Below are positions 19,364-63,040 of a stretch of 64,000 nt of DNA, piece after piece. The stretch spans positions 70,147 to 134,146 of the forward strand of contig DASXVU010000045.1 in NCBI GenBank assembly GCA_036504055.1, in the 5' to 3' direction. This DNA is from Methanomassiliicoccales archaeon (GTDB lineage: Archaea; Thermoplasmatota; Thermoplasmata; Methanomassiliicoccales; UBA472). Below the pieces are notes generated by a model, which ran no database searches, was not told where the DNA came from, and worked only from the letters and a program-made list of their open reading frames with translations. The translations under genes and the position numbers were made by a program. Each line of letters begins with the position of its first letter. Within the stretch, counting starts at the first letter, position 1.

Positions 19364-19478
19364 GGACATATTTCTTCGAACAAACTGATTAGCCTCCAGG
19401 GGCCATCTTCCGGCAAATGCTGGCAGTGTCTTGGGTCAGAAAAGATTAAGATATTGTGCTGGATTTGGTAGCGCACAG

Positions 19479-19550
19479 GCGGCCATAGTCTAGTGGTTAG
19501 GACTGAAGCTTCCCAAGCTTCGAACTCGGGTTCGAATCCCGGTGGCCGCA
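19479..19550 (+). tRNA. tRNA-Gly (CCC), intronless, CCA not encoded
   Basis: Acceptor GCGGCCA/TGGCCGC-A; anticodon arm GAAGC-TT-CCC-AA-GCTTC; T-loop GGTTCGAATCC. Confidence 0.96.
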
Positions 19551-20075
19551 CTTTTTATCTTATCCATTCAGCTGATCTTAGGATCATAGGCCTTTTTGCC
19601 ATTACCGAAAACGGTATACCATGTTTTGAATGTAACATGATAGGAGAAATCTAGGTCAGGCAACGGACCTACTATAATAGTTTGGCGATTTCGTTTTGTA
19701 AAATTTATTATTAATTAATTGCATATTTTAGACAATATGAACTGTTCAGGAACTATATGATAACAAATTTCCATATAATTTTGTTTATAATGTATGATCG
19801 AATCTCCTGAACAGGGGAGAATAATGGAAGAGACCCTTGTCGAGGGTGATGTTCTCTGCCATCAGATCAGTTGCAATCAACATCTCGGGATCCATTTTTG
19901 ATCCAGATGTTCAGGCTGTATGCCTCATTGAGCGATTTCTTCCGATCGCTAGCATACGAGACAGACCCTGCGACGATCATCGAGATCGTTGTGGTGGCAG
20001 TCTCCATCCAGTCTGATCAGTGCAACGTAACGAAAAAGGAGATGAAAATATTAGGATGGGATCAACATTGAAGAG

Positions 20076-20157
20076 GGACAAGTTCGGGACGGCTGTCACC
20101 AGGACAGCTGTTCCGGTCGCACCGGGACCGGCTACGACGGTGGCCTTGTCCGTTTTT
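20076..20157 (+). ncRNA. Candidate structured RNA (four-way junction followed by a U-tract)
   Basis: Hand-paired stems of 7, 12, 4 and 5 bp with three G-U pairs on the + strand; no known family recognised. Confidence 0.4.
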
Positions 20158-20264
20158 AACAGCATAGCGAACAAAGCAAGGGACAACGCTTGGAAGATCG
20201 GCGATCAGGCGATGAAAAAGGGCGCCTTCGAGATTGCCTCGGGAATAACGAGAGGTTGTTTCGA

Positions 20265-21290: not shown

Positions 21291-21318
21291 GTGGAACTGC
21301 GCAGCTCGAAACCACAAA

Positions 21319-21345
21319 TGGGGCGAAATGCCCCACCTTTCTTTT
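21319..21345 (+). terminator. Hairpin plus T-rich tract after the beta-helix gene
   Basis: TGGGGC-GAAAT-GCCCCA followed by CTTTCTTTT. Confidence 0.5.
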
Positions 21346-21353
21346 ACTTCACG

Positions 21354-21526
21354 ATTACGAGCGAAGCCCGACCAAATACCTACCAAACCTGGAGGAAGGA
21401 GGATTGCTGAAAAGGTCTGAGGAGAAGGACAGGATGATCAACGAGATAACCGATAAGGGTAGGCACTTCCTTACCGAGTTCCAGCGCATGGAAGCGTTCG
21501 TCAACGGTTTCGGCCTGGATATTTAG
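21354..21526 (+). pseudogene. C-terminal remnant of a small winged-helix regulator
   Basis: TKYLPNLEEGGLL...EITDKGRHFLTEFQRMEAFVNGFGLDI is typical of the C-terminal half of archaeal small wHTH proteins; no plausible start codon and no N-terminal helices. Confidence 0.55.
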
Positions 21527-21704
21527 GTACCTTGGCTCCGATATGTCTTGATGGTCAAAAACTCGGTTATCCTTGGTCGAATTTTGACCTGGGTTATGCG
21601 GCCGACAATATCTTTTTCGGTCGAATTATATAGATGGTCATGTCTTGTGAGTTGAAACCAGCAATTGGTCTGCATTGCCTTTCTCAACATTAACAGGTGG
21701 ATTG

Positions 21705-23174
21705 ATGAGCCCTCGAGAACAAGAGAAATCTAACGGTAATTGGAGGATACTTGCGATTTTGGCATCGGTCGCGATGATGGTCATGTTCATCGAGATCATG
21801 CTTGTTCCGGCCCTGCCATACGTAGGAGTGGACTTCAACAACTTTCAGTGGATCTCTTGGGTGCTATCGATCTATTTGCTGGTAGGCGCCGTGGCCACCC
21901 CTCTGGCCGGACGTCTGGGCGATATGTACGGCAAGAAGAGGATCATGCTGTACGTCATGTGCATCTACATCATAGGACTGCTCGGCAGCGGGTTCTCGCT
22001 GGACATATCCCGCGCACTGCTCGGCGAGCCTTCGATCTTCGTTCTGATCTTCTTCAGGGGAGTTCAGGGCATAGGAATGGGCATGTTCCCGTTGGCCTTC
22101 GGAATCATACGCGACACTTTCCCCAAGGACAAGATACCCACCGCCATCGGCACCGTCAGTGCGATGTTCTCGGTCGGTGTTTCCCTCGGCCTGCTGGGCG
22201 GGGGCTATATCACCTCCGTCGGCCATTGGTATGATGCGTTCCACGTCGTCGTCCCGTTCTTCGCGGCACTGACCATCCTTACAATGTTCCTCATCAAGGA
22301 CCCTATCATAGTGAAGAGGGGGTCCTTGGACATGGCAGGAGCCGCAACTCTGGGGATCGGCGTGTTCTCGTTGCTGCTGGGCCTGACCCAAGGACAAGAA
22401 TGGGGATGGGCGAGCCCGCTGGTCCTGGCCCTGTTTGTGCTTGCCTTGTCGATGTTCCTGTTGTTCACCAAGCTGGAGCTGAGGACAAAGGACCCGATAG
22501 TCCGCCTGTCTATGTTCAGAAACCGCGGTGTGTTGGATGCCAGCGTAACGGCCATCTTCATCGGCTTCTGCATGTTCCTGATGTTCCAGACGCTACCGTT
22601 CTTCCTTGAGACCCCTAAGGCGGCGGGGGGCTTCTTCGGAATATCCGATACCTTCGTGATCGGGCTCTACATGTTCCCATCAGCGATCGCCCAGCTCATC
22701 TTCGGCCCGATGGGCGGCATTCTTTCGAAGAAGTTCGGGGCCGACAAGGTACTGATGTCCGGCCTTGCCATAATGGCCCTCGGATTCGCCACACTGGTAT
22801 TCATGCATACGGATTGGGTGGGGATCGTGATCTCGATATTCATCACGGGAGCGGGAATGGCCCTGTGCATGGTGTCTATGATCAACCTCGTCGTGGTCAC
22901 CTGCAAACAGAGCGAGTTCGGTGTGGCGTCGGGGATGAACACCTTGTTTAGAGTGGTGGGCGGGGCGATCGGGCCAGTCCTGGCCGTCGTGATCTTGTCG
23001 AACTACACCCAAATCATCCTGGGTCGCCCGGTCTATACCGAGAACGGATATGTGACCACATGGATCATTGGAGCCGCGTTCTCGCTCATCGGACTTGCAT
23101 GCGCCGTCCTCCTTCGCCCGAAGAAAGGGGAAATGGAGTGCGATATCGCGCCCGAGGACCTTCCAGCGAAGTAG
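21705..23174 (+). CDS. MFS transporter, DHA2-like (14 TM)
   Basis: GRLGDMYGKKR motif A, FRGVQGIG, many TM helices. Confidence 0.9.
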   Translation: MSPREQEKSNGNWRILAILASVAMMVMFIEIMLVPALPYVGVDFNNFQWISWVLSIYLLVGAVATPLAGRLGDMYGKKRIMLYVMCIYIIGLLGSGFSLDISRALLGEPSIFVLIFFRGVQGIGMGMFPLAFGIIRDTFPKDKIPTAIGTVSAMFSVGVSLGLLGGGYITSVGHWYDAFHVVVPFFAALTILTMFLIKDPIIVKRGSLDMAGAATLGIGVFSLLLGLTQGQEWGWASPLVLALFVLALSMFLLFTKLELRTKDPIVRLSMFRNRGVLDASVTAIFIGFCMFLMFQTLPFFLETPKAAGGFFGISDTFVIGLYMFPSAIAQLIFGPMGGILSKKFGADKVLMSGLAIMALGFATLVFMHTDWVGIVISIFITGAGMALCMVSMINLVVVTCKQSEFGVASGMNTLFRVVGGAIGPVLAVVILSNYTQIILGRPVYTENGYVTTWIIGAAFSLIGLACAVLLRPKKGEMECDIAPEDLPAK

Positions 23175-31749: not shown

Positions 31750-32226
31750 ATGAACATGCCGCGTTTCTCCGCCGATGAGATGCTCGGGTCTTTGGCCAGA
31801 TGGCTTCGGTTGATGGGTTACGATACCCGGTATGAAAGGGACGGCAGCGACACCGACATCTTGCTTCGGGCTAGAGAGGAGGGCCGGGTCCTGTTGACCC
31901 GGGACAAGAAGTTGGCGGAGAGAGCGGGTTCGCAAGGTCTTTATATCGACGTCCGGAACCTGGATGACCAGATAAGGCAGGTGGCGACGGCATATGATCT
32001 GGTTTTTGATGAAGATTTATCCAGATGCACAGCATGCAACGGCGAACTCGTGCTCATTGGCAGGCAGGAGGCTTCGGAGGGTGTGCCGGAAGGGGCGCTT
32101 CATTCCAACGAAGAGTTCTTTCGGTGCAAATCATGCGGTAAATACTACTGGAAAGGAAGTCACTGGACGAACATAAGGAAAAGGTTGGAAGCGTTGGACC
32201 GACCAGGTCAGGACAGTTCGCGGTAA
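31750..32226 (+). CDS. Mut7-C RNase (PIN-like) domain protein
   Basis: DEMLGSLARWLR, LLTRD, RCTACN, CKSCGKYYWKGSH. Confidence 0.88.
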   Translation: MNMPRFSADEMLGSLARWLRLMGYDTRYERDGSDTDILLRAREEGRVLLTRDKKLAERAGSQGLYIDVRNLDDQIRQVATAYDLVFDEDLSRCTACNGELVLIGRQEASEGVPEGALHSNEEFFRCKSCGKYYWKGSHWTNIRKRLEALDRPGQDSSR

Positions 32227-33146
32227 TAGTCCTCTGATATTATCTTGCCGGTGCTGGCATTCAGGATCATGACGCCCTTGACCCCTTCGATGCACCAGAT
32301 GGGCAGGTAAAAGATGCCCATGTCGGACAGCTCGATCGAGTCGGCCTTCGGGGAGACGGTCTTCTTTTCCGTCATGGTGACGTGGTTCTCCTCTTTCACC
32401 ACGTCCCTTTCGAAGGTGTGCCTCCTAACCACCTCCTGCATGACCAGGTTCTTGGCCTCCTCGGTGTCGATGAGAGGTTCCAGGCGCTTGTGCGTCACCT
32501 CCAGCGAAAAGACAATGTTCAGGTCGGCCGGCCAGGAGTCTACTTGATGGGTCAGCCCGTTCACCGCCAAAAGCCCGGTCTCGACGCCGAGCTTGTTGTC
32601 ATCGATGTACAGCGGAGCCTTGTAGCCGAAAACGTAATGCGGGACCAGTTCCAGCCGATGCCGGAAACCGGCTACCGTCTGGGCGGCGATCTGTTTTACG
32701 TCCTCGACATCCACGATCGGTTTGACGATCTTCTCCCCAAAGTCCTGGTCCACGGCCTTATCCAGATCCTCCGCGGTAACGATCTTGGGGTAATCGTCCG
32801 CACCGAACTCGTCCATCAGGCCGTGGTCCTTCTCTCCCACGATCCTCTCTATATGCACCCGGCCGATCTCGTGTTCGATCGCCTCCCGGTCCCATACGAA
32901 TGTGCGGTCGTCGACCTTTGACAGCAATGCATCGGGCAAGGGCAGAAGGGTGGCGATGACCCGCTTGCCCTTGAAGTCCTTGAAGTGCTCCATGAAATCC
33001 GAAAAATCCTTGTCGTTCAAGTCGACCAGCAATAAGAACACTACCTCGACTTCCTTCCGTTTCCCCGCGAGGAATCCATCCCGGTCGAATACCTGAAAAT
33101 CCCGGGATTCAAGTATCTCACTGATAACCGCTCTCAGCGAGGTCAA
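32208..33146 (-). CDS. Hypothetical protein with a duplicated C-terminal module
   Basis: 312-aa ORF with SD GAGGTAGG upstream; two KP/EP...P(H/I)(Y/W)...(V/L)N..T modules. Confidence 0.7.
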   Translation of the reverse strand: MTSLRAVISEILESRDFQVFDRDGFLAGKRKEVEVVFLLLVDLNDKDFSDFMEHFKDFKGKRVIATLLPLPDALLSKVDDRTFVWDREAIEHEIGRVHIERIVGEKDHGLMDEFGADDYPKIVTAEDLDKAVDQDFGEKIVKPIVDVEDVKQIAAQTVAGFRHRLELVPHYVFGYKAPLYIDDNKLGVETGLLAVNGLTHQVDSWPADLNIVFSLEVTHKRLEPLIDTEEAKNLVMQEVVRRHTFERDVVKEENHVTMTEKKTVSPKADSIELSDMGIFYLPIWCIEGVKGVMILNASTGKIISEDYYRELS

Positions 33147-33279: not shown

Positions 33280-34251
33280 TTACCTCTCCCCATTATGGGA
33301 TGGGAGTTTCCTTTCCTTCCTCCAAGGTAGGATGGGGGCGGTCTCGCCCCGAATGACGGCCGGTAGTCCATCAGCCGAATGCTGGTCCATCTCGGTCCGC
33401 CTCACCCGTGCCCTCAGGGCATAGTTGTTGCAGGTATTGGTGGCGCATCCACCGCTCACTATCTGGCTGATCTCATGCACCGTGAGATATCTGACATCCT
33501 CCTTGGCCTCCAGCAGGTTCCAGCTTACGAATCTCTCGCCCAACGCGAAAAGCCGTTCTTCCCCCATGCTCCTCCCCATCGCCCTGACAGACCGTGCCGT
33601 TTCCCAATATGAGTGGAACCGATTGGCTGTGGAGCGAACCTCATCCATTTTTTCCTGGGACATCCGGACGATGGCCGGTTCATGATGTTTCCTCTTGATC
33701 GTGTCCGGCAGGTGGCCCGTCCATTCGTCCAGCAATGAGAAATTTATTCCTACCAGCAGCCAGGCCGAGGTCTCTCTGAATATCACCTCGCGGACCACGT
33801 TCAGCACCTGGTCGAACTCCTGGAGCATCTCCTCCTCCGTCTCCCATTTTCCCTGCTTGCGCTGGATCTCCACCAGTTGTCCTTCAGATTCAAGGATGGC
33901 CTGCTCCAGGTTCAGGGCGATGGCGGATCGGCCGATGTCCAGTACCCGGTCGGCCGTTGCGTCATCGAGGGTGAAATATCCCCTTGCCATTGGGCTTTCG
34001 AAGAGACGGTCGATTATCGTCTGAGTCACCCCCGCTGTCTTCAGGACGGCGGCTATCTTGCTGAGGTTCCAGTAAGCGTGATGGAAGAACGTGCGCACGA
34101 ACTGTAGGTCTTCCCCCTCCACCCGAAGGTCGCGCCTTATCCTGTTCCAGCTGGAATCCATAATCTCAGCCAGTACAGACCAGTTGAACGGGTACATCAC
34201 ACCCGGCAGGAACTCATCGGCCAGTACGTTAGAGTAGATATCGTCGCTCAT
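33280..34251 (-). CDS. Protein resembling the central domain of PEP-utilizing/rifampin phosphotransferase enzymes
   Basis: YSNV..E.LPGVMYPFNWS and LGE..V....L...EDVRYLT..EI patterns; no ATP-grasp or phospho-His domain. Confidence 0.5.
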   Translation of the reverse strand: MSDDIYSNVLADEFLPGVMYPFNWSVLAEIMDSSWNRIRRDLRVEGEDLQFVRTFFHHAYWNLSKIAAVLKTAGVTQTIIDRLFESPMARGYFTLDDATADRVLDIGRSAIALNLEQAILESEGQLVEIQRKQGKWETEEEMLQEFDQVLNVVREVIFRETSAWLLVGINFSLLDEWTGHLPDTIKRKHHEPAIVRMSQEKMDEVRSTANRFHSYWETARSVRAMGRSMGEERLFALGERFVSWNLLEAKEDVRYLTVHEISQIVSGGCATNTCNNYALRARVRRTEMDQHSADGLPAVIRGETAPILPWRKERKLPSHNGER

Positions 34252-51567: not shown

Positions 51568-53250
51568 TTGATGCCAGCATCGAATGGCGGGACGGCTTGG
51601 GAAAAATTCTCGGCCAAAGGTGACGGGCTCATCGCTTTCCTGGAGAAGGAGCGGCTTCCGATCATCGGTGTTTTCGTCTACGTCATACTGCTGGCTTTAG
51701 GCCGGGACATGGCCGAGTACTACCTGTTGGACGCCGAGTTCGTCAACACCGTGCATCCCTGGATCTTCAGCATCGCCCACCACGTCTCCTTCTATGTGGT
51801 GGTGTTCCTGGGGCTGGTGCTGTTGCTTACGGCCTTCTCGGGAAGGGGTTTCCGTCGCTCCCTTAACCTCATCACCAACATCTATTGGCTAATTCTCATC
51901 CCCCCGTTCCTGGACCATTTCGTGTTCGGACTGAACGAGAGCTATGCCTATTTTTCCTGGACCGAATACCTTAATGCGTTCTTCCAGTTCCGAGGGCGGA
52001 CCTTTCATCCAGGGCAGGGATTGGAGGTGGCCGCGTTCCTGTTCGCGCTGTTCGCCTACGTGATCTGGACCCAAAGGAACAGCCTCTTCTTCATCAAGGA
52101 GAGAGCGGTAACGCTACTGCGCGTTTTCTTCCTGGTCCTTTTCACCATCATCTCGATGTTCATAGTCGCCACCCCTGGAGCTTACCTCCCGGTCGGCAAC
52201 ATCGACGGCATGCCGGCCTTCCCCTACTTTGACCAGACGAAGTACTTCCAGTTCCATCTGTTCCTGGTGATGTATTACGTCGTCGCAGGCCTGCTCCTGG
52301 TGACGGTGATCGCATATATGGCCATGAAGGGCTCCTTCCGCCGCCAGATCGCCAGCATGCGGCCGTTCCAGACCCTGTTCTTCGGCATGATCGTGGCCGG
52401 AGGGATGGTGGTCGGATGGAGGACGGTCGATCCGGAACTGGTGATGTCGATAACCCAGACCCCTTACTGGGTGAACATCACTTACGTTATCCTATCGATA
52501 GCGTCTGCCCTCCCGGCCTGGCAGGTCAGCACCATCTGGAACGATATCGCCGATAGCGGGTTCGACGATCCGACTAAGACCTGGAGAACGATCGCGTCCG
52601 GGACCGTGGACCGGGGCACTATGTTCCAAGGGTCCATCGTCATGATGCTGGTGGCTCTGATGGTGGCGCTCCTTCTCTCCTTCACGGAGTTCCTGTTGTT
52701 GGCCCTGATCTTCGTCCTTTCCTATCTGTATTCGTTCAAGCCGGTGCGTTTCAAGGAGCAGGTGATGAGCCCGGCGCTGATCGGCATCGGGGCATCGTTG
52801 GCGTTCCTCTACGGCTACCTGACGCCATACACCGTGGTCGTGACCCAATACCAGTATGACACGCCGGTGATCTTCTTGACGGGGGCGGTGGGGGTCGCCC
52901 CGCTGAGCCTGACGTCCTTCATGATCGCCGCCGTCATATTCCTCGGACTGGTCATCGGGTCGATGGTGACCGACGTTTCCGGCTACGAAGAAGACAAAAA
53001 GGCCAACGTGAGGACCGTATACACCAAGCTAGGTTTGGGAAAGGGGGCATTGCTGGTCTCGGCCCTGATATTGGTCGCTTCCTTCACTCCCTTGGTGCTT
53101 TTCTCCAGACCGACGGATCTTGTCCTGTTCCCTGTGATGGGCGTGGTTGCCGCGGGATGCTTCTACAGGTACCGGAGCTCACGGCTGGTCATGGGCGTGG
53201 CGCTGATCGGCTTCATTTATGCGACCCTCAGGTATCTGGGCATGATCTAG
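51568..53250 (+). CDS. UbiA-family prenyltransferase-like protein with a large N-terminal multi-TM extension
   Basis: C-terminal half has NDIADSGFD...RTIASG and TDVSGYEED..NVRT motifs; 560 aa. Confidence 0.72.
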   Translation: MMPASNGGTAWEKFSAKGDGLIAFLEKERLPIIGVFVYVILLALGRDMAEYYLLDAEFVNTVHPWIFSIAHHVSFYVVVFLGLVLLLTAFSGRGFRRSLNLITNIYWLILIPPFLDHFVFGLNESYAYFSWTEYLNAFFQFRGRTFHPGQGLEVAAFLFALFAYVIWTQRNSLFFIKERAVTLLRVFFLVLFTIISMFIVATPGAYLPVGNIDGMPAFPYFDQTKYFQFHLFLVMYYVVAGLLLVTVIAYMAMKGSFRRQIASMRPFQTLFFGMIVAGGMVVGWRTVDPELVMSITQTPYWVNITYVILSIASALPAWQVSTIWNDIADSGFDDPTKTWRTIASGTVDRGTMFQGSIVMMLVALMVALLLSFTEFLLLALIFVLSYLYSFKPVRFKEQVMSPALIGIGASLAFLYGYLTPYTVVVTQYQYDTPVIFLTGAVGVAPLSLTSFMIAAVIFLGLVIGSMVTDVSGYEEDKKANVRTVYTKLGLGKGALLVSALILVASFTPLVLFSRPTDLVLFPVMGVVAAGCFYRYRSSRLVMGVALIGFIYATLRYLGMI

Positions 53251-53252
53251 GA

Positions 53253-54431
53253 TCAGAGCGAGGAGAAGAAAAGTCTCGGGAAGGACGGTATCGTCTCCGC
53301 CAGCAATCTCCGCCAATCGTCCGCCCCGACCGCTATCCCCTCGGAAGCGCGGACGATGCCCTCATAGCCGATCACGTTTCCGAAGAACTTGTCAGTGTCT
53401 ACCACGCCGATGAGCCAGTGCAGGACCGGGGCGATGATCTCGGCGGCCCTCATGTCCCTTACGATGTTGTCTTTGCAGAGCCGGTCATATCTTGCCAACG
53501 GATCTTTCACTGAACCGGACAGCAGGCCTTTGAGAGCCTCGGTGGCATAACCGGCGCTCTGGAAGGCGTAGGACATGCCCTCTCCGCTGATCGCGCTCGT
53601 GAGACCTCCGGAGTCTCCCACCAACAGCGTTCGTCTGGTGTGCAGCACTTTACGCGCCCGAAGTGGGATCGGGTGGGCCGCGTAACCGCTGATGTCCGGC
53701 AGGACCCCCGTTCTCCGTTCCAGGTCAGTGGAAACCGTGACCATCGCCTTCCCCATCGCCTCGGCGGAATAGCCCGAACCCACAACCCCGATGTTGCATC
53801 CGGTGCGCAGCGGGAACATCCATCCCATGAGAGGGAAGCCTGGACCCCAGCGTATATGCTTCGTCGGAGAGTCGATGAGGAAAAGCTCAATCATATCGCC
53901 ACGATCGATGTCCTCGTTGCACTCCACCGCCATGCCAATGGAGGAGAACTTCCCTGGATAAGGACCGTACAACCGGCTGGCGTTAACGCTGGTCGCCCCT
54001 TCGGCGATGATCAGGGCTTTTGCCCGGAGATCGCTGGCACCGACCTGGCAGTCGACGCCGCCTTCATCCTCTCGTACATTCTCCAGCTTGTGGCCCTGCA
54101 ACACCTCACAACCGGCATTCTCCGCTTTCGCGACCAGGAACGCGTCGAACTTGGACCGGCGGACCATCGAGATGACGACCTTGCCGCTGTCGAGGGTGTG
54201 CATGTGCCCATCATGGACCACCTTGACCCCGGTGACCTTTCGTTCGAGTACGTCCTCTGGCACCGGGAAATCCAGCATGCCGAGGGCGCGCTGCATCACG
54301 CCGCCGGCACAGCATTTGCCGCGCGGAAGCTGCTCTCTCTCGATCAGACCGACCTTGTACCCGCTCTTGGCGAGCAGGTACGAGGCGTAGGAGCCGGAAG
54401 GTCCTGCCCCGGACACGAGCACATCGTACAC
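53253..54431 (-). CDS. Geranylgeranyl reductase family FAD-dependent oxidoreductase
   Basis: DVLVSGAGPSG, RRSKFD..L, GWMFP, LVGDSGG.....SGEGMSYA. Confidence 0.88.
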   Translation of the reverse strand: MYDVLVSGAGPSGSYASYLLAKSGYKVGLIEREQLPRGKCCAGGVMQRALGMLDFPVPEDVLERKVTGVKVVHDGHMHTLDSGKVVISMVRRSKFDAFLVAKAENAGCEVLQGHKLENVREDEGGVDCQVGASDLRAKALIIAEGATSVNASRLYGPYPGKFSSIGMAVECNEDIDRGDMIELFLIDSPTKHIRWGPGFPLMGWMFPLRTGCNIGVVGSGYSAEAMGKAMVTVSTDLERRTGVLPDISGYAAHPIPLRARKVLHTRRTLLVGDSGGLTSAISGEGMSYAFQSAGYATEALKGLLSGSVKDPLARYDRLCKDNIVRDMRAAEIIAPVLHWLIGVVDTDKFFGNVIGYEGIVRASEGIAVGADDWRRLLAETIPSFPRLFFSSL

Positions 54432-54455: not shown

Positions 54456-57400
54456 TTACTCCTTCCTCTTTCTTTCGGCCCGTTCGATTACCGCCTCGGC
54501 CACGACGATGCCGAAGACCCCGAAGAGGGGCCATAGGAACGTCAGGTCGACATAGCCGGTCTTGATGTTGATCACCGAGCCCGACGTGTCCAGCACATTC
54601 ACCGGCTGCTCGCTGAACTGCCATCCCCCGGAGGACTGCTGGCTCGTGTATATCCAAAGGGTCGATGTGCTTCCGGCGGTGTAGGTGTAACCCGGGCTGA
54701 AACCGATGGCCATGGCGATATCCATGAAACCGTCTCCGTTGAAGTCGCCTAGCTCGACCGCCTTGACGTCATACGCGTTCGTCCCGATCGCGGCGGACGC
54801 TGCCACCACTGGGATGTTGATTGGAACTCCCAGCTGGGTACCGGAATTGATGCTGGGGATGACGAACAGGGCGTGGTTGGCATCCCCATTCCCTATCATG
54901 GTGGTGCCTACCACAATGTCCAGATAACCGTCCGGCTTTGTATTACTATAGGACGGACCCACGTCCGCCACCGCCAAAGAGGTGATGTAGTTCGGGCTGC
55001 TTATGCCGGGTATCGACTTCTGCCATTTAGTGGAATCGAAGTCCCAGGAGACAGCCGGCGAGTAGTGCGTAATGTTCAACTTATTCACGCAAAGCGTATC
55101 ATTGACTATGTCCGTCGCCTGCCTGTTCGTGTCCTCGATCCTGATATAGTACTTCGAGTTCACTGTGTGCAGGAGCATCCCTGAGTAGTTCTTCTGGGTC
55201 GTGCTCGAGATGGTGAACAGGTGGAACCAGGTCTCATTGTCTGGTGAGTAGGACACATTGAACGAGTCCCCGGCAGTTTTGACCTTGGCGTTGATCGTCA
55301 GGTTGTGCCAGATCTCATTCGGTAGGTTTGGTATCTGCCAGTCCCACTGTACCTGTCGGGACACCGCAAACTTCACCTCTAGATATATGTAGTCGAAACG
55401 CACCGCGCCCGAACCCGTGGTTTCGTCGTTGTAATATCGGAAGCAAATGTTCTGCAGCTTCGCCCAGGTGTTTATGCTGTCGGCCCCTTGACCGTTAAAC
55501 AGATCATATGTCAAATTGACTGAGAGTTGGGTGTTAGTGGGTTTGATATTGGTGTTCATCCATGTGCTTCCGCCGTCCTTTGACCATTGCAGATAGCTAT
55601 TGCCATCGTAATCGGCCAACACCCAGTACTTGGTTCTCATCATGACCTGAGTGACCTGCATCCCACTGTACGACGAATCCGCACTGGCCATGGCGACGCT
55701 GAGCGTCTGATGTCTGTCCACATTGTAGGTTTGTCCGTCATCGCGCTGCAGATTCGACACTGTCTGATTTATGGTCGTATCCCCTGCTGCTTTCGTTATT
55801 GGCCTATCGAACAGGACAGAAGAGTTCTGGAAGACCTCTGTTAGGTTCTCCCATTTGTTGTCTATCGCAGTCAGATCGGCCTTGCTTCCAGTGACCTTGG
55901 CCGTAATCCCGGTCCCGCCATATTCAAGGACCGGGAAATTTTGTGTTTTGGTCGGTTCGGCCCTCTTCGTGATGATCACATAGACGGTGTTGACCGATGC
56001 CGCGGCCGCGCTGGTCCTCACGATATCAGGATAACCGTTGCCGTCCACATCAGCCACCCTAAGCCTAACGGCTCTGCCAGCCAATTCCCACGGCCCCGCG
56101 GTTCCCGGAACGGTCGGTACACTTGTCGATGGCATGAGCGATGCCGTGGTGTTGAACGCGGCATTGAACGGATCGGACGTCGACTGCACATCGCTCCACT
56201 GACTGAGCCATATCTTGGTGACACCGGTCTCATAGACCGCCACTATATCGTCGCATCCGTCCTGGTTGAAGTCCCCTGTGGCAATGTCGATGGCCGCTGG
56301 GTTGTTGTTGCCGTTAGCGTCCAGGAGAGTTGCTCCCTGTTTGAAGGCCGGGAAGTAATCCCTTGATCCGTACAGTGGGGTCATCTTCCAATCCATGGCC
56401 CCACCGTTGTTCCACAGAACGTACAGACCGCGGTTGAAGAACATAGGGGTGTTCAGCGCTGGGTTTGATTTCGCTGCATCCTCAGTGGTCGCGGTGGAGT
56501 GAACGACCACATGGATAAGGCTGACAACGATGTCGGTATGACCGTTTCCGAAATTGCCTGCTGCCATTGCTCCAATGATGTCATAGGACGAATAATAATC
56601 GTTGTCGAACTCGGGTGTGTGACCCCAAGACGTCGTGGCCGCATAGACGGTAACGTCAGCGTTGCCCAGCCCTTTACTGCTGCCACCATCCTTCCAGAGG
56701 CCGGGGGTTCCGTCGAGGGATTTCATTAGACGGTAGGGATTTGACCATGATAGGCCATCAACTGACTGGCTGCGATACCAGGCGACACCGACGCTCGGGT
56801 CCTGGAATCCGACTGCCAGGTCCTGGCGGCTGTCTCCGTCCAGATCCGATTGTACCAGCCCTATTGGTCCATTATATGTCTTGGTCGGAAGGGCAATGTC
56901 TATCTTTTGCCATTGCCCGGTCACCTCGCCGTTCTTGAACCATGCGAGCTGGCTATTTTGCCAGGAGGCTCCGGATGAGCTCCAGGTGAAAGCGCCGGAA
57001 CCGATGCCCGCTATGATGTCCGTCATCGTCCGGGGAGCGGTGATGTTGAACTGGACGGTCAATGAGTGATACGTTTCACCGGTTGTCGAGTTGGCCCCAG
57101 CATCCTGGAACGTGTCTATCGTAAGGGTGTACGAGTTCCTCCTCGGCAGCCACCATCCGGCGTTCGCGTCGATGGGCTTGAAGTAGAAGGTGTAACGAGC
57201 CGACGGATCGTTGGATGATGTCTTCCCATCGGCTATCCAGGTTGCCCCGTTGGTTGAATCTGTCTTGAAGACCGAGCTGACCGGGGCGGTATAGATCGGA
57301 ACCTTGATGCCGGCCGGATTGGCCGCCGGCATTGTCGGGGTCTTTCTTACAACATAACGGCCAGAATAGTCGCTCACCGTCAGGTCGTTCATGAAGACGC

Positions 57401-58766
57401 CGGTCATCTGGCCGTCGACATCGAGAGTGGTCAGCTTGACATATATGGTATCGGTAAGTGAGAAGTTGGCAGAAGGCACCAGAACCCCTCCGCTCAAAAT
57501 ATAAGTGGCAACCTTTGGGTATTGAGCGTTGTTGATGATTATCTGGTCCCAGATGTTGACGACCGTCCCTATGTTGTCCTTCAGCTTGATCTGTATGGGA
57601 TAAGTGTAGCCAATGTTGGGGGCGTTGAACGTGTAGTTATAACGGTAGAAGTCTCCGTAGATACCACCGTATTGGAACGCCGCGGTCGAGCTCGGCGGGG
57701 TCATGATGTTGCCGGTCAGCGGCATATAGACCAGCAGGTTATTGTCAATGGCCAGGTTCCTAAGTGTATCGCTATACACTTCGACCAGTATCTGTTCGCT
57801 GGAGTTGAAGTTCCTGGTTATGTTGCTGTCGGAGGCGCGGCGGATGTAGTAGAATGTGGTCCCTGCCTCTCCCATCGTCTCTCCGGCCTGACCGCCGCTA
57901 GCATCCGGAGGATATGTTCCGTTTGTCAGGTAACTGGAATAGTTGGTGTATGGGCCATTGTAGCCGCTACCGCCGCCAGAGGTGGTCTTGGACACAACGA
58001 TAACGAACTGAGCGGTGGCGTTCTTGCCTAACGAGTCATACGCATTGAAGAATATCGTCTTGCCATTCCATCCACTGTAGGAAGCCAAGTATGTGCTTGT
58101 GCTGGTATAGATCCCGTCGTGGTTAGTGTCGGTCAAGGTGATGTTGTTCGATAGACCGATACCGGAAGCATCGACCCAAACCCCAGCCAGGTTATTCTCC
58201 AGGTCGGTTATGGTGGCATACAAATATACCGGATCCTTATCATAGACCGGTGACGGGGTGAAACCCCGGGCACCAATGATGGGCGGCGTGTTCTGGTCGG
58301 TCTTGTTGCCTGCCAATACCGCTTCCCATACGATATTGTTGGTGGTCTTGTCCACGATCATCAGACGAACGGTCATGCCGGAGGAGTAGGGGGTGGTGTC
58401 ATAGGACCAGACCTCGCCTATCTTCCAGTCGTTGCCTATGCTGGGGTTGCTGGATGAGATGTTGAGAACAGTGGGAATGTCGTTCTTGAAGAGGTATATG
58501 TTAGTGGAATCCTGGGTCAGCGTCTGACCGCCCTTGTGGGTTATGTTCATATATAGATGGCTGCTGGAGGTACCGACCTGAGCACTGAAGTCGCTGAGCG
58601 TCTGGTCCTGTGGCGCAGGCATGTTCGTCACGAAGAATAGGACACCGGTGAACAGTGAGACGGTTATGGCCAGTATGAGCAGGTTGCCTATGATCTCAGA
58701 GACACCGTGGCGGCTTTTCCTGAGATTCTTGCTGTTCCGATGATAATTGCTCTTTTTGTTGGTCAT
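54456..58766 (-). CDS. Giant archaeal type IV pilin-like adhesin (class III signal peptide, FG-GAP propeller, C-terminal TM), 1436 aa
   Basis: RKSRHG/VSEIIGNLLILAITVSLF; repeats such as DLDGDSRQD, GDFNQDGCDD, DVDGNGYPD, GDFNGDGFMD; C-terminal LTFLWPLFGVFGIVVAEAVIERAERKRKE. Confidence 0.85.
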   Translation of the reverse strand: MTNKKSNYHRNSKNLRKSRHGVSEIIGNLLILAITVSLFTGVLFFVTNMPAPQDQTLSDFSAQVGTSSSHLYMNITHKGGQTLTQDSTNIYLFKNDIPTVLNISSSNPSIGNDWKIGEVWSYDTTPYSSGMTVRLMIVDKTTNNIVWEAVLAGNKTDQNTPPIIGARGFTPSPVYDKDPVYLYATITDLENNLAGVWVDASGIGLSNNITLTDTNHDGIYTSTSTYLASYSGWNGKTIFFNAYDSLGKNATAQFVIVVSKTTSGGGSGYNGPYTNYSSYLTNGTYPPDASGGQAGETMGEAGTTFYYIRRASDSNITRNFNSSEQILVEVYSDTLRNLAIDNNLLVYMPLTGNIMTPPSSTAAFQYGGIYGDFYRYNYTFNAPNIGYTYPIQIKLKDNIGTVVNIWDQIIINNAQYPKVATYILSGGVLVPSANFSLTDTIYVKLTTLDVDGQMTGVFMNDLTVSDYSGRYVVRKTPTMPAANPAGIKVPIYTAPVSSVFKTDSTNGATWIADGKTSSNDPSARYTFYFKPIDANAGWWLPRRNSYTLTIDTFQDAGANSTTGETYHSLTVQFNITAPRTMTDIIAGIGSGAFTWSSSGASWQNSQLAWFKNGEVTGQWQKIDIALPTKTYNGPIGLVQSDLDGDSRQDLAVGFQDPSVGVAWYRSQSVDGLSWSNPYRLMKSLDGTPGLWKDGGSSKGLGNADVTVYAATTSWGHTPEFDNDYYSSYDIIGAMAAGNFGNGHTDIVVSLIHVVVHSTATTEDAAKSNPALNTPMFFNRGLYVLWNNGGAMDWKMTPLYGSRDYFPAFKQGATLLDANGNNNPAAIDIATGDFNQDGCDDIVAVYETGVTKIWLSQWSDVQSTSDPFNAAFNTTASLMPSTSVPTVPGTAGPWELAGRAVRLRVADVDGNGYPDIVRTSAAAASVNTVYVIITKRAEPTKTQNFPVLEYGGTGITAKVTGSKADLTAIDNKWENLTEVFQNSSVLFDRPITKAAGDTTINQTVSNLQRDDGQTYNVDRHQTLSVAMASADSSYSGMQVTQVMMRTKYWVLADYDGNSYLQWSKDGGSTWMNTNIKPTNTQLSVNLTYDLFNGQGADSINTWAKLQNICFRYYNDETTGSGAVRFDYIYLEVKFAVSRQVQWDWQIPNLPNEIWHNLTINAKVKTAGDSFNVSYSPDNETWFHLFTISSTTQKNYSGMLLHTVNSKYYIRIEDTNRQATDIVNDTLCVNKLNITHYSPAVSWDFDSTKWQKSIPGISSPNYITSLAVADVGPSYSNTKPDGYLDIVVGTTMIGNGDANHALFVIPSINSGTQLGVPINIPVVAASAAIGTNAYDVKAVELGDFNGDGFMDIAMAIGFSPGYTYTAGSTSTLWIYTSQQSSGGWQFSEQPVNVLDTSGSVINIKTGYVDLTFLWPLFGVFGIVVAEAVIERAERKRKE

Positions 58767-58828
58767 AATTGCTGCCTTCCACTGTCGAGTGCCTGCGCTC
58801 GGGGCAAATTTGATTATTTCGTTTGTCT

Positions 58829-58857
58829 CTATTTAACCATTGGTGGCTGATAATCAA
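58829..58857 (-). promoter_or_regulatory. Putative promoter and palindrome of pilin-like gene 1
   Basis: CTATTTA-N12-TGATAATCAA (+ strand reading), the same spacing as at 62935-62963. Confidence 0.55.
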
Positions 58858-59131
58858 TTTTGAACAGATGATGGCTGGACAGAAATTATTCAATCGTATC
58901 ATCATTGATAATTTGTACGGCCAGAACCCCCACCAACAGGCAAGTTACCTTGAGTGAGCTCGCTCGCCTTCAAGCGACGTTCGCATATATTTCAAGGGTT
59001 TTGACAACGGCGAAATCCAGATCGAATTCAAATGGGGGTTCCATTGATCATTCAATTTACCATGATCCAGAACTGAAATCGACATCAAAGAAGGATCGAA
59101 AGAGGTTTTTCCCAATAGGTAAGACATTTCT

Positions 59132-62100
59132 TCAATAGGTCTGGAACTTCCTAGCATCCAGATCGTTAATTCCTCCAGACCCGATTATCTGATTATCAAC
59201 GACGTAATACTGCCATCCCTGCGTCTTGAGACCCTGATAATTCGCATAATAGCAGATCGCGCTCGAGGTGGCCAAGAGTATGTCAGTCCTACCATTTCCA
59301 TCCACGTCCGCCGCAATCATCTTCACTATGGATTGACCGGTCAGAAGGGCGAATTTTGCATCATATGTTCCAGGTGTGGTCTTGTTCTGGTTTATTAGAT
59401 ACACGCCAGTAGCCGTTGAGACAGCGATATCCAGATATTTTCCTTTGTAAGGATTGAAGAAATTTCCAGCCCCAATATCCAACGCATTGGAGATTCCGGT
59501 GGAATATGGAGAGGATGGGTGATCAAAGATGGAGGAACCAGCGCAGTTCATGAATGCTACCAATGTCCCAGAACCTCCGATGGCAACTATGTCGTTGGCC
59601 CCGTCCCCATTCATATCGGCAACTGTCAATGCGGCAATGCTTGTTCCCACCGATGTCACTGTCGCCCCTACCGTGGTCACAGTCATCTGACCGATCTTCA
59701 AATAGGATTCTCCAGGCGTAGCTGTTTTGATCCAGGGCGCTGAAGCCTTGATCTTTATTATTCCAGTCGAAGTTACCCCGGTAATTATTCCAGAATATTG
59801 AGTGAACGAAGACCCTACTCCAACATAGAGATGAGTGGAGAAGGATTTGAAGGTCAACCCATTATCGATCGAATAGTTGAACTCGATCTTATCACCATCA
59901 TTGCTGGCAGATCTAAGGGCAAACGCTGAGAATGCATAGGTGGATCCAGAACTTGGTACCTTTACCGTCCAATTGTGATCCATTATATCCCCGGTAACCC
60001 AGGTAACGTTCAAAGACCAGTACCTGAAGTCCACGCTGGTGGATAGAGGGTTGGAATTCTCATAGGTGATATTAAGGGTCTTCAATGAACTGGCCAATGG
60101 GAATTTGCTCGTCAGATCATAGCTCGCCCGAACCCAGCCGCCTTCGGTATTCTGGATGTTGATCATGTTGGATGACGTCTCAATTTTGCCCGTTTCGTTA
60201 CTCCAGGTTATGTAATCGGTTCCATCATTATTCCCGTTCGTCTTGTACATTACCTCGAAGGTTACCTGGCTGGTCGGAAGATCATTTATCAATCCAGTGC
60301 CGTCCCAATTGACGATCGATGCGTTGCTGCCTCCGGCCACAGTGTATGGATTTGATGCGGAATTCGCATATTGCAGTTGCGAGATGTCGTCTGGACAGTT
60401 ATCCAGCACGCCTTTCGGTGCTGCGGGTACTGAGATCTGATGCCTCATTGTCAACTGTTCCTGAACCTCTTCATAGATCCAGGGTACCTGTATCGCGCTG
60501 GTTGTGTCCAGATAACTACCAGTAATGATATCGTTTGTAGAATCCTCCCCGATGGCAAAATCCTGAGTTGTCGTGGTTGAAGAAGATAACTTGATCGGGT
60601 TCCAAAGGGTACCGATTCCGTTCTGGTTCTTGAAGACGGTTATGGTCCCGTCGGTCCTTCCGACCACGATGTCCATTGAACGATTTATATCGACGCCGGA
60701 CGATCCAGGAGGCACCATGTTGGCCACCTGGATGGAACTAACCGGTGAACCTGAACCCACTACAGTATATTTGGACCAGATTCCGTCGTTCTTATACAGA
60801 GTCACCGCACCGCTTGCATAGCCTACCACGATGTCCAGTGTCTTTCCCAGACCTGTATTTCCAAGCTGCACGTCAGACGCTGTTCCGGAAATCGATGATA
60901 TCCAGTACTTGTCGAACCCTCCGCTGCTCCGCTGGATGAACAGATACAGATTCGTGCCACCGTCGTCCTCCACGGCCACAAAATCTGTTTTTCCATCCCC
61001 GTTGATATCCCCGGCACGAATGATCGAGATCACCGGATTGTATGATTTCTTGTCGGTTGTGGTCTCCAGCATAAGCGGAGGGTACCAGCTGTTGTCATTT
61101 TTGTAGTAGAGGAGCGAAGCTTGACTCTGGAATCGAGCGCCCCCTTGAGGTTCACCACCTGCAACGATGTCCAATTTGGTGGTCGGAGAAGTGACATTGA
61201 TCACATTTGATAGGACGTAGGTCTCTGTCCCGGCTTGGAACATGTCATATTTTAGAATATAGGCGTTAAATCCAGGTAGCCATGGGGTCAATCCGGTGAC
61301 GTTATACAGATTGATCTCGAAACGATATTTGTTCACTGCGCTCTGCCAGACGTTGCTCACTGAACCGGTCCAATGGGTCACGTGCTGAGAATAATATGTC
61401 GTCGGTGGATAGGGCGAGTCGCTCGGTGGGGTGTTGCTCAATTGGGAATCCCAGAAGAAATCACGTATCTCGACCAGGCCAGACCCGGGGACCCAGGCCC
61501 CTCCGATCTTCGTCGTTATCTCAACATAGACCACATCACTATCTGTGTTGTATGTTGTAAAGCTAGTCGTTTTCTTCGTAAAACTTGAATCCGAATATGT
61601 CGTGAAGGTCGGCAATTGAGTAACTGATGCCCCGGCTGTCTTGATCAGGATCATCTGATTCATCATGAACGCATTGTTGGGATTCCAATTATCCTTCACC
61701 TTCACATCAAGAAGGTAATATGCGGTCAATGAAGGAAGTAGGGATGTATTAATCGAACAATTATATATATAATATCCAGATAGAACATCTAATGGCTGGA
61801 ATGAATTTATCGGGGATGAGACACCTGATTGTACTTGTTTTGTCGTGTCATTCATCACGAGGATCGAATTCATATTCTGGACATTGACCACGAACTTGCT
61901 TGCGATGACGACCACGGCCGTCTGCCCTTTGTCAAATGTGAGGGTCGGTGTTGCACTGTATTTGTGTAGGTTCCAGTCACTCCATTCGAAGATTTGGAAG
62001 CCTTGTAGCCCACTGTAATCTAGATTTCCTGGCGGGGAACCGGATCCCGAACCGCCGTTATTGTCAATGTTGTTACCACTTTGATTTTGCATTACTGAAA

Positions 62101-62875
62101 GAGTAAATTGGACGGAGGAAGTTGCCCCCGCCCGATTCGTTGCATTGAAGAACACCGTCTGACCGTTCCAATCGCGGTACGATGCCTTGTAAGTCAGGTT
62201 GGAAGTAAAGATGCCATCATTGTTTGAATCCCAGAGGACGACATGATTGTTGGTGACTCCCGGAAGGAAAGCGGCATTCATATAAACGCTAGCAATGTTT
62301 GCCAAGCCATTGACATCGACAACCGTTGCGTAGAACTTGACCAGATCCCCATCATATGCTGGCATAGGATTGATACCGCGACTACCGATTATCGGAGGAA
62401 AGTTGTTATTGGCATTACCAGCCAACGTTGCTTGCCATACTATGTTATTCGTGGTCTTGTCCACAACCATTATTCTTACCGAATCGCTATTTTTATCGAA
62501 GTTGCTAAGGATATGCGACCAAACTCCACCGATATTCCAGACATTCCCAAGTTTGGGATCGCTTGAGATATAGAGCAGCTGCAGGTCATTGTTTTTGAAC
62601 AAATAGATGTTGGTTGAATCGTTACTGAGCGATTGCCCTCCTTTGTGTGTTATATTCATATATAAATTGGAACCGGATATGCCGGTCTGGGCACTAAAAT
62701 CGCTTAGCGTTTGATCCTGTGGCGATGGCATGTTGGTCACGAAGAACAGGACGCCGGAAAACAGTGAGACGGTTATGGCGAGGATGAGCAGATTACCAAT
62801 GATCTCCGAAACCCCGGTCCTGCATTTGCGCAATCTCTTGCCAGACCCAAAATAGTTGCTCTTTTTGTTCGTCAT
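59132..62875 (-). CDS. Giant archaeal type IV pilin-like adhesin paralog (class III signal peptide, FG-GAP propeller, no TM anchor), 1247 aa
   Basis: Start reset to ATG 62875 (MTNKKSNY, as in the paralog); RKCRTG/VSEIIGNLLILAITVSLF; GDINGDGKTD, ADMNGDGAND, ADVDGNGRTD. Confidence 0.85.
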   Translation of the reverse strand: MTNKKSNYFGSGKRLRKCRTGVSEIIGNLLILAITVSLFSGVLFFVTNMPSPQDQTLSDFSAQTGISGSNLYMNITHKGGQSLSNDSTNIYLFKNNDLQLLYISSDPKLGNVWNIGGVWSHILSNFDKNSDSVRIMVVDKTTNNIVWQATLAGNANNNFPPIIGSRGINPMPAYDGDLVKFYATVVDVNGLANIASVYMNAAFLPGVTNNHVVLWDSNNDGIFTSNLTYKASYRDWNGQTVFFNATNRAGATSSVQFTLSVMQNQSGNNIDNNGGSGSGSPPGNLDYSGLQGFQIFEWSDWNLHKYSATPTLTFDKGQTAVVVIASKFVVNVQNMNSILVMNDTTKQVQSGVSSPINSFQPLDVLSGYYIYNCSINTSLLPSLTAYYLLDVKVKDNWNPNNAFMMNQMILIKTAGASVTQLPTFTTYSDSSFTKKTTSFTTYNTDSDVVYVEITTKIGGAWVPGSGLVEIRDFFWDSQLSNTPPSDSPYPPTTYYSQHVTHWTGSVSNVWQSAVNKYRFEINLYNVTGLTPWLPGFNAYILKYDMFQAGTETYVLSNVINVTSPTTKLDIVAGGEPQGGARFQSQASLLYYKNDNSWYPPLMLETTTDKKSYNPVISIIRAGDINGDGKTDFVAVEDDGGTNLYLFIQRSSGGFDKYWISSISGTASDVQLGNTGLGKTLDIVVGYASGAVTLYKNDGIWSKYTVVGSGSPVSSIQVANMVPPGSSGVDINRSMDIVVGRTDGTITVFKNQNGIGTLWNPIKLSSSTTTTQDFAIGEDSTNDIITGSYLDTTSAIQVPWIYEEVQEQLTMRHQISVPAAPKGVLDNCPDDISQLQYANSASNPYTVAGGSNASIVNWDGTGLINDLPTSQVTFEVMYKTNGNNDGTDYITWSNETGKIETSSNMINIQNTEGGWVRASYDLTSKFPLASSLKTLNITYENSNPLSTSVDFRYWSLNVTWVTGDIMDHNWTVKVPSSGSTYAFSAFALRSASNDGDKIEFNYSIDNGLTFKSFSTHLYVGVGSSFTQYSGIITGVTSTGIIKIKASAPWIKTATPGESYLKIGQMTVTTVGATVTSVGTSIAALTVADMNGDGANDIVAIGGSGTLVAFMNCAGSSIFDHPSSPYSTGISNALDIGAGNFFNPYKGKYLDIAVSTATGVYLINQNKTTPGTYDAKFALLTGQSIVKMIAADVDGNGRTDILLATSSAICYYANYQGLKTQGWQYYVVDNQIIGSGGINDLDARKFQTY

Positions 62876-62934
62876 GATCGTCGCCTTCCCTCTGGCATCT
62901 ATGCAGGAGACAATCCGACTCATCCAAATGGTCA

Positions 62935-62963
62935 CTATTTATTTATTTGGAGTTGATAATCAA
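62935..62963 (-). promoter_or_regulatory. Putative promoter and palindrome of pilin-like gene 2
   Basis: CTATTTA-N12-TGATAATCAA; TTGATAATCAA is a 5-1-5 palindrome. Confidence 0.55.
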
Positions 62964-63040
62964 GACTCGAATAGACACGGCCAGATCATATAATTGATAT
63001 ATATTAATATAAAATATTATGATTCATGGTAAATATGATA

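Follow-up and report, generated by a model that had tools for sequence, protein, structure and literature searches.

Proteins resembling parts of those reported here are known from several described systems, and we compare them below with the products of two genes, A and B, in a 64,000-nucleotide stretch of DNA from a Methanomassiliicoccales archaeon (assembly GCA_036504055.1, contig DASXVU010000045.1, positions 70,147 to 134,146; the whole stretch is hereafter called the window). Archaeal type IV pilins of the Pilin_N family (formerly DUF1628; structures 8FJ5 and 8GI2) are about 145 to 165 amino acids (aa) long and form the fibre, and they share with A and B a basic leader, a [GA]/VS-x-[VI]IG junction, the helix α1, and a β-sandwich with an ITH-x-GG strand. 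Bacterial modular pilins, such as Streptococcus sanguinis PilB with its vWA domain and PilC with its lectin domain, and CofB of enterotoxigenic Escherichia coli, are likewise pilin carriers with grafted adhesive modules and a proposed role in ligand binding; the survey that treats them covers bacteria only (IPR012902), and its largest protein has 860 aa (PMC8179133). Integrin α chains resemble A, as modelled, in their seven FG-GAP blades, in loops of the Ca2+-type motif in several blades, and in an inserted domain (αI in that case), and resemble A-type proteins in having a C-terminal transmembrane (TM) helix with a short basic tail. Bacteria, too, have FG-GAP propellers of the integrin type (PMC3192720). 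PilY1/PilC proteins are large, propeller-containing adhesins that are associated with type IV pili and function in a Ca2+-dependent manner, and in the sugar-binding proteins of the Sulfolobus bindosome and the ArlF/ArlG stators, a pilin-like helix holds a large extracellular domain at the cell surface.

The family to which A and B belong combines known parts in a new arrangement, and its size, its class-wide conservation, and the double anchor of its A-type members set it apart. Our assessment, made with moderate confidence, is that A and B are paralogues within a family specific to Thermoplasmata, whose members are giant surface adhesins or receptors of the modular-pilin type. The family comprises three classes, namely A-type proteins of about 1400 aa with a C-terminal TM helix, B-type proteins of about 1250 aa, and a third class of about 1135 aa. 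A pilin module (aa 1-155) is followed by extra Ig-like domains and an FG-GAP propeller, and whereas archaeal pilins consist of little over 150 residues in all, the module here accounts for less than 12% of a protein of 1250 to 1450 aa. The residue at +3 is Glu or Asp rather than the Pro of the aligned haloarchaeal pilins, A-types further differ from archaeal pilins in their extra C-terminal TM anchor, and the family has no pilus genes nearby. In comparison with bacterial modular pilins, the carrier belongs to the archaeal pilin family and bears a stalk of four domains and a propeller interrupted by an insert, and no described modular pilin is doubly anchored as the A-types are. A preliminary description of the locus had called it a candidate undescribed archaeal adhesin system. 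In agreement, we found no paper on this architecture in archaea, and the proteins are far larger than described pilins. The names assigned automatically to family members in databases are 'type IV pilin', 'FG-GAP-like repeat-containing protein', and, at JGI, 'FlaG/FlaF family'.

The remaining systems differ more widely. Identity to integrin α is about 10%, a pair of jelly-rolls is inserted after blade 5 where integrins instead have a vWA domain that separates blades 2 and 3, and the propeller is proximal to the membrane, whereas in integrins it forms the distal head. Orthology with integrin α is contradicted by the lack of thigh and calf domains, of a GFFKR motif, and of a β-subunit, by a tail that reads ERAERKRKE, and by the absence of other integrin domains in Pfam searches. 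PilY1 is not a pilin, its propeller belongs to another family, and it is encoded with minor pilins, whereas the A and B genes are not; the analogy with PilY1 that had been drawn earlier is thus a functional one only, with no Neisseria_PilC/PilY1 propeller signature in Pfam at E <= 1. Unlike bindosome proteins and ArlF/ArlG, the family genes lie in no archaellum or transporter operon, and their extracellular domains are entirely different. No archaellum genes were present in the flanks whose gene lists were read.

Domain plan of proteins A and B

Both minus-strand open reading frames (ORFs) reported in the preliminary description are present, and they are arranged head-to-tail (Table 1). The B ORF extends at its longest back to a GTG codon at 62935, but the ATG at 62875 (MTNKK) is the best predicted start because it aligns with the start of A and with the MTNKKSNY starts of orthologues, and because the sequence GGAAGG stands 8 nt upstream in both genes. 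TAAATAG (about 55-60 nt upstream) and GGAAGG are also found 5' of B in an alignment of the region 62876-63040 with that preceding A, and the shared TAAATAG region is a putative promoter for both genes. A scan for bacterial-type promoters and terminators returned counts equal to the shuffled expectation and was uninformative. The window has a GC content of 0.554; that of A is 0.542, and that of B is 0.474. The two proteins share 36% identity in their first 766 aa and about 24% across much of the remainder. Their signal peptides had been described as near-identical; the identity is 85% in the first 60 aa, and Pilin_N matches both proteins.

Table 1. Coordinates of genes A and B, their predicted parts, and the genes 3' of A (window positions)
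Feature	Coordinates	Strand	Basis and remarks
Gene A, A-type member	54456..58766	-	1436 aa; ORF, Pfam, and AlphaFold models
A leader, aa 1-21, MTNKKSNYHRNSKNLRKSRHG	58704..58766	-	7 Lys/Arg; predicted cytoplasmic; ends at predicted G21/V22 site
A pilin module: α1 (aa 22-48), VSEIIGNLLILAITVSLFTGVLFFVTN, and small β-sandwich (aa 49-155)	58302..58703	-	Pfam, PDB profile, model
A stalk: about four Ig-like/β-sandwich domains, aa 160-577	57036..58289	-	model pLDDT mostly 80-95
A propeller, N-part, aa 583-936: second half of blade 1, blades 2-5	55959..57020	-	Pfam FG-GAP, model
A insert, aa 940-1260: two β-sandwich/jelly-roll-like domains, no Pfam family	54987..55949	-	model pLDDT ~90
A propeller, C-part, aa 1261-1407: blades 6-7 and closing strand	54546..54986	-	Pfam, model
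A anchor: TM helix (aa 1408-1427), LTFLWPLFGVFGIVVAEAVI, and tail ERAERKRKE (1428-1436)	54459..54545	-	hydropathy; model helix 1408-1435
Intergenic region 5' of A	58767..59131	-	TAAATAG ~55 nt and GGAAGG 8 nt before ATG
Gene B, B-type member, same plan, no C-terminal anchor	59132..62875	-	1247 aa from ATG 62875
B N-terminal ~240 aa (leader, α1, pilin β-domain, first stalk domain), A-like	62156..62875	-	sliding-window identity
B propeller, N-part, ~aa 566-811: five FG-GAP-like units, approximate bounds	60443..61180	-	Pfam, motif map, alignment to A
B insert, ~aa 812-1072, homologous to A insert, approximate bounds	59660..60442	-	BLASTP, alignment
B propeller, C-part, ~aa 1073-1247: three FG-GAP units and closing strand	59135..59659	-	motif map, alignment
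Geranylgeranyl-reductase-family (GGR) gene, 24 bp 3' of A	53253..54431	-	TIGR02032, 170 bits
UbiA-like prenyltransferase gene, 560 aa, convergent with GGR	51568..53250	+	PF01040

The N-terminal module was recognized by the Pfam family Pilin_N (PF07790) in A (aa 21-92; E 3e-11, 44.3 bits) and in B (to about aa 95; E 1e-10, 42.4 bits), in each case above the cut-off of 25.2, and the NCBIfam model TIGR02537 remained below its cut-off. A profile made from the first ~150 aa of 20 family members was then searched against the PDB and matched the Haloferax volcanii pilus subunit 8FJ5 (8fj5_A, E 7.9e-8), 9MYG (9myg_A, 2.4e-6), and Natrinema PilA2 8GI2 (8gi2_A, E 1e-4). The profile alignment extends from the leader/helix junction, where SAVSPVIG of H. 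volcanii 8FJ5 stands against HGVSEIIG here, into the β-domain of the solved archaeal pilins. In the AlphaFold model of A, the same region forms a helix (20-48) followed by strands (58-152). The pilin-sized first domain announced in the preliminary description is therefore confirmed by the Pilin_N and 8FJ5 matches and by the helix and small β-sandwich of the model. Judged by its sequence, the module is truly homologous to the archaeal type IV pilins that form filaments, and the bond between G21 and V22 is the predicted site of prepilin-peptidase cleavage. It is also the most conserved part of the family. The N-helix holds a cluster of columns (V22, S23, T35, V36, F39, V46, and P52) that are invariant, or nearly so, in each of the three classes, and this conservation far exceeds the needs of a passive anchor.

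AlphaFold models of A were built from family alignments in two pieces, covering aa 560-1436 (predicted local distance difference test score [pLDDT] 87.6, predicted template modelling score [pTM] 0.73) and aa 1-600 (pLDDT 82.1). Several Ig-like segments had been proposed to follow the pilin domain, and the model indeed contains about four β-sandwich domains, with a conserved linker motif, NGTYPPDASGG...GTTFYYIRR, in this stalk. Foldseek matches to the stalk were headed by the S-layer protein SbsB and included the Ig-like domains of PrgB, complement MG domains, and SiiE. Note that we used Foldseek matches, here and below, to assign fold class only, because the models are multi-domain and global TM-scores are low.

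In their C-terminal part, the proteins have an FG-GAP propeller of the integrin-α type. Pfam FG-GAP (PF01839) was detected in A with an E-value of 5e-14 (52.3 bits; cut-off 22.1), and integrin αV and α5 headpieces matched the C-terminal model of A with Foldseek probabilities of 0.99-1.0. The repeats of A are modelled as a closed ring, as the preliminary description had expected, and the model supports a propeller of seven blades closed by a C-terminal strand. Blades 6 and 7 correspond to aa 1261-1388, and the closing strand VINIKTGY (1397-1404) completes blade 1 beside DIIAGIGSG. This propeller is non-contiguous, as an insert of ~320 aa splits it after blade 5. Loops of the DxDxDGxxD type are located at 641-649, 832-840, 906-914, and 1341-1349; across the propeller, blades 2, 4, and 7 have a conserved loop, blade 5 has a less conserved one, and the loops of blades 3 and 6 are degenerate. 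The strict repeat D-x-[DN]-G-[DN]-G-x-x-D occurs twice in A and three times in B, the remaining blades being degenerate. The count of six full D.nGDG..D-type repeats given in the preliminary description must accordingly be corrected, with the further proviso that the propeller is interrupted by the ~320-aa insert. Similarly, the N-x-S/T sequons that had been called frequent number 24 in A and 18 in B, compared with about 21 expected from composition, which amounts to no enrichment.

The insert of A has no sequence match in the PDB. Its Foldseek matches are of the carbohydrate-binding module (CBM)/jelly-roll type and comprise reelin, Cry1Ac, SGBP-B, and GH43-CBM. The first of its two sub-domains (A aa ~990-1135, window ~55362-55799) is an unnamed β-sandwich and a candidate new domain family. 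It recurs in unrelated extracellular proteins; in other FG-GAP proteins, it likewise sits within the array of repeats, and it is also found in a multihaem-cytochrome-like protein and in a GDSL-lipase/Calx-β protein.

In B, the propeller was recognized by FG-GAP_3 (PF13517; E 4e-13, 50 bits, cut-off 26.9), and a BLASTP alignment of A 822-1198 with B 613-1031 (24% identity, E 2e-5) supports the homology of the two inserts. When D-h-h-h-G units are counted in the sequence, B has eight, comprising five before the insert (LDIVAG, TDFVAV, LDIVVG, MDIVVG, and NDIITG) and three after it (NDIVAI, LDIAVS, and TDILLA), followed by the closing strand GINDLDARKF. In contrast, A has seven, of which two follow the insert. 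The seven-blade, velcro-closed propeller that had been proposed for both proteins is therefore supported only for A, for which the model is confident; B, with its eight units, may form a ring of seven or eight blades.

Comparison of B with A in successive 60-aa windows gave identities of 85, 68, 53, and 45%, then ~20%, whereas comparison with its closest relative (P0197) gave 37, 30, 37, and 35%, then 42-70%. By this pattern, B is a chimera in which the pilin module and first stalk domain were replaced by A-like sequence through conversion. The event is real but old; a recent gene conversion as the cause of the alike N-termini was ruled out because the N-terminal DNA of A and B is only ~85% identical, with many synonymous differences. 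Because the GC content of B is low (see above) and its closest database relative is only 49% identical, we suggest that B originated as a copy of foreign origin or evolves fast, and that A-like sequence subsequently replaced its 5' ~720 nt. Taken together with the conservation of the N-helix, the conversion suggests that both helices serve one shared partner, which may be a peptidase, an assembly platform, a major pilin, or each other.

The C-terminal anchor and the case for a filament

In A, the TM helix follows the last propeller strand at a distance of three residues. All 71 full-length A-type homologues have a C-terminal TM helix and an Arg/Lys cluster, with an invariant Pro (71/71) and a Gly at +3 from it in 69/71, whereas B-type and third-class proteins have no such helix; hydropathy analysis revealed no second hydrophobic segment in B. 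Because the leader has 7 Lys/Arg and the tail 5, an in-out-in topology fits A. The protein would then be tethered at both ends, with its propeller on the membrane, and could act only at the cell surface, within about the reach of the stalk.

The motif-TM-basic layout with its invariant Pro could conceivably represent a new sorting signal at the A C-terminus. A gene for a CPBP/Rce1-like intramembrane protease (L001:2744-4039) is located just outside the window, four genes upstream of B; its relative position is conserved among the A-type and B-type loci read and recurs in one locus of the third class (L005). We rejected this protease as a known sortase-type enzyme, as it has no NCBIfam match and also adjoins B-type genes whose products have no C-terminal helix.

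The anchor bears directly on the proposal, made in the preliminary description, that these proteins are tip or minor-pilin adhesins. In its full form, this explanation holds that the prepilin peptidase cuts both proteins, that a type IV pilus machine whose genes lie elsewhere draws them out of the membrane, and that filaments carry them as PilY1-like adhesins; we regard it as doubtful. The pilin module is homologous to pilins that polymerise, its N-helix is conserved beyond the needs of anchoring, and bacterial modular pilins with bulky adhesive modules are established and have been modelled at pilus tips (PMC8179133). However, the universal TM helix and basic tail of A-types would retain the protein in the membrane. 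A pilin that is extracted into a filament must be held by α1 alone, which is the case for B but not for A with its second anchor. Given the conserved TM helix and tail directly after the propeller, a position at the distal pilus tip is not credible for A unless the anchor is cleaved. The tip or minor-pilin proposal is consequently not supported for A, whose anchor recurs in all 71 full-length A-type homologues, and could still apply to B. In addition, lengths of 1250-1450 aa exceed that of any described modular pilin, including the largest of the bacterial survey (860 aa), and no PilY1 domain was found.

The genomic context was examined in three sets of loci: 80 reference-genome loci for synteny, 86 loci for a scan for small ORFs, and six contexts with Pfam gene lists. 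A Pfam scan of the 43 larger ORFs in the window found no T2SS-E ATPase, T2SS-F/TadC, or A24 peptidase domain, in line with the preliminary description, and the window genes are otherwise housekeeping in character. The same domains were absent from the Pfam-annotated genes within 10 kb of A on its contig. The family genes are thus not part of a pilus gene cluster, and the lack of any genomic link to pilus genes in the loci examined counts further against the tip-pilin explanation.

Nevertheless, assembly in trans is conceivable because type IV pilus machinery is encoded elsewhere in the genome of the cultured relative Methanomassiliicoccus luminyensis. There, a pilin_N gene adjoins two T2SS-F-family genes, so that the order does have machinery of this type. 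The expression tables of this organism, which are truncated, contain no gene named as a prepilin peptidase or ATPase, and this negative is uninformative. Pilus-like appendages have been reported in M. luminyensis by the authors of its study, and the small 'type IV pilin' WYS_RS11940 is highly expressed (3500-4100). These observations favour extraction by a pilus machine, most readily in the case of B.

A syntenic core gene and its neighbours

The family is restricted to Thermoplasmata and vertically conserved in one syntenic slot. We recovered ~75 homologues of A, nearly all full length and 37-84% identical to it. A search for the same architecture across Thermoplasmatota had been recommended in the preliminary description; our scan of species-representative genomes yielded 176 relatives, all labelled Methanomassiliicoccales, Thermoplasmata, or Thermoplasmatota except for one short 'bacterium' contig, which is probably misbinned. 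In nearly all loci with enough flank, the gene lies between the corrinoid adenosyltransferase gene (CobO) and a group comprising a 209-aa protein (p209), a PDDEXK-HTH regulator, HSP20, and CDC48.

Most genomes carry either an A-type or a B-type gene at this site, and the closest complete genomes carry A alone. B and A side by side were found only on the present contig among the loci examined, and one genome has A-type and B-like genes at separate loci (L087; GCA_049722765.1, JBNASI010000033.1). The tandem arrangement, which had been presented as a feature of the system, is therefore peculiar to this contig in our set, and we rejected the idea that A and B form an obligate pair. In L087, the B-like paralogue P0206 (1491 aa) is outside the usual slot, near polysaccharide-synthesis and sugar-epimerase genes, and the same 963-kb contig also encodes the A-type gene P0010. 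Three Methanomassiliicoccaceae metagenome-assembled genomes (L054, L055, and L057) apparently have two tandem B-like genes and no A-type gene. In the nanopore-derived assemblies L009, L039, L055, and L057, probable frameshift errors break up the giant gene.

Stalk proteins of archaeal surface layers typically have a C-terminal TM anchor. The anchor and the core-gene distribution would both suit a structural envelope protein, that is, an S-layer-like coat, spacer, or stator anchor in these mostly wall-less archaea, in which the pilin-type helix (and the C-terminal helix of A) would form the membrane roots and the Ig-like and propeller domains the lattice. We consider this explanation unlikely, but it is kept alive by core-genome synteny and vertical inheritance, which are atypical of adhesins: the gene is near-universal, vertically inherited, and set in a housekeeping neighbourhood across the class. 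The top Foldseek match of the stalk, SbsB, is an S-layer protein, and Thermoplasmatales are described in PMC12448462 as having no paracrystalline S-layer.

Expression data from M. luminyensis speak to the same question. WYS_RS11735 is the A orthologue of this organism, with genes for GG-reductase, UbiA, CyaB, and a CPBP protease as neighbours. It is transcribed in every culture condition listed (expression values of ~350-780), at about the level of EF-2 (500-1170) and FtsZ (660-1380), and transcription under all these conditions would suit an envelope protein. However, its values are ~5-10-fold below those of mcrA (3500-9000) and of the small pilin WYS_RS11940, which is low for a coat protein; the gene is expressed, but below coat-protein level. 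Neither Pfam nor NCBIfam revealed an S-layer or CTERM sorting-signal model at E <= 1. Moreover, Ig-like arrays match adhesins equally well, and FG-GAP propellers with Ca2+ loops typically bind ligands.

The genes 3' of A are closely linked to it in gene order. The GGR gene (on the same strand as A, with a gap of 2-51 bp in most loci) and the UbiA-like gene were present together in 28/28 A-type loci compared with 2/35 non-A loci, and the two exceptional loci are probably frameshifted A-types. GGR matches the broad family model TIGR02032 only and not the lipid-reductase equivalogs, and the UbiA-like protein has weak NCBIfam prenyltransferase matches at aa 300-506. The latter also has an extra ~280-aa N-terminal membrane region. 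It is possible that the two enzymes supply a dedicated isoprenoid lipid or glycan carrier.

Elsewhere in the window, three FtsZ/tubulin-family genes are encoded within 6 kb, at 2201-3220 (-), 5386-6519 (+), and 7062-8189 (+), and one of them is shorter (339 aa) with a weaker FtsZ_C match. A low-GC stretch (0.48-0.50) at 18000-22000 includes an ORF at 20190-21290 (+), encoding 366 aa with an N-terminal hydrophobic segment and a right-handed β-helix/pectate-lyase-like domain; it is probably another surface protein and possibly was acquired horizontally. Three putative ORFs of 312-337 aa without Pfam matches are located at 395-1408 (+), 32208-33146 (-), and 33280-34251 (-).

Proposed mode of action and significance

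If A and B are surface adhesins or receptors of the modular-pilin type, the leader would stay in the cytoplasm and a prepilin peptidase of the PibD/EppA type would cut at G21/V22. The propeller, several blades of which carry DxDxDG loops of the Ca2+ type, would constitute the ligand-binding part together with the insert, and the proposed ligands are surfaces, glycans, or partner cells. In A-types, the C-terminal TM helix and cytoplasmic Arg/Lys tail would tether the mature protein at both ends. B-types may either remain anchored by the pilin-type N-helix or be loaded into a type IV filament as modular minor pilins.

Several observations weigh against this adhesin model. Position -2 of the putative cleavage site is occupied by His or Thr instead of Lys or Arg, with a basic residue at -3. 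No pilus ATPase, platform, or peptidase gene is present within 10 kb in the Pfam gene lists of the six contexts. No small pilin with the same β-domain was recovered; a search with the profile of the N-domain yielded nothing but short or partial fragments from tiny contigs. The ORF scan of all 86 loci likewise detected no small class-III pilin ORF. Since the window has no such ORF either, we dropped a small major pilin sharing the β-domain as a candidate. Furthermore, adhesins are usually variable and patchy in distribution, whereas the present family has the character of a syntenic core gene, as would suit a structural role in the envelope at least as well. Finally, the strict operon link of A-types with the GGR paralogue and the UbiA-like gene is left unexplained by the adhesin model.

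A further arrangement resembles the bindosome or a pseudopilus. The pilin modules of several copies would oligomerise into a short, membrane-proximal stub, as has been proposed for the Sulfolobus sugar-binding proteins with class III signals, and the propeller heads would form a platform for binding or uptake at the surface and not on a long pilus. Such a stub is compatible with the second anchor of A and with the conserved N-helix, the insert resembles carbohydrate-binding modules, and archaeal class III signals are used by non-fibre surface proteins according to a passage of PMC12448462 that cites Szabo et al. 2007. No assembly genes or transporter neighbours were found nearby in the contexts read, however, and the proposal is speculative in that the same data fit an adhesin or receptor that does not oligomerise in this way. 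We judge it very unlikely.

The doubly tethered A-types also permit a more specific, though very unlikely, interpretation. As 'anchored pilins', they might dock the N-helix into the base of a filament, or have it pulled by the machinery, while the C-terminal TM helix stays fixed, and would thus root or terminate a pilus; or they might function as integrin-like two-anchor receptors that are mechanically extended. In either case, GGR and the UbiA-like protein would supply the carrier for A. The first of these roles would be played in a cell without an S-layer that could serve as stator.

On the favoured reading of A and B as modular-pilin-type adhesins or receptors, archaea too graft adhesive modules onto pilin heads. 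The second anchor of the A-types breaks the usual pilin logic and raises the testable question of how pilin-type proteins are arranged at the membrane when the cell has no S-layer. Methanomassiliicoccales, whose cell surface is very little known, occur widely as methanogens in wetlands, digesters, and guts. Partner-cell contact has been reported to matter for methanogenesis by M. luminyensis (bioRxiv 10.1101/2024.03.29.587405), which makes an adhesin candidate of practical interest. Because this cultured organism carries the orthologue WYS_RS11735, the cleavage, localisation, and binding of an A-type protein are directly testable in it.

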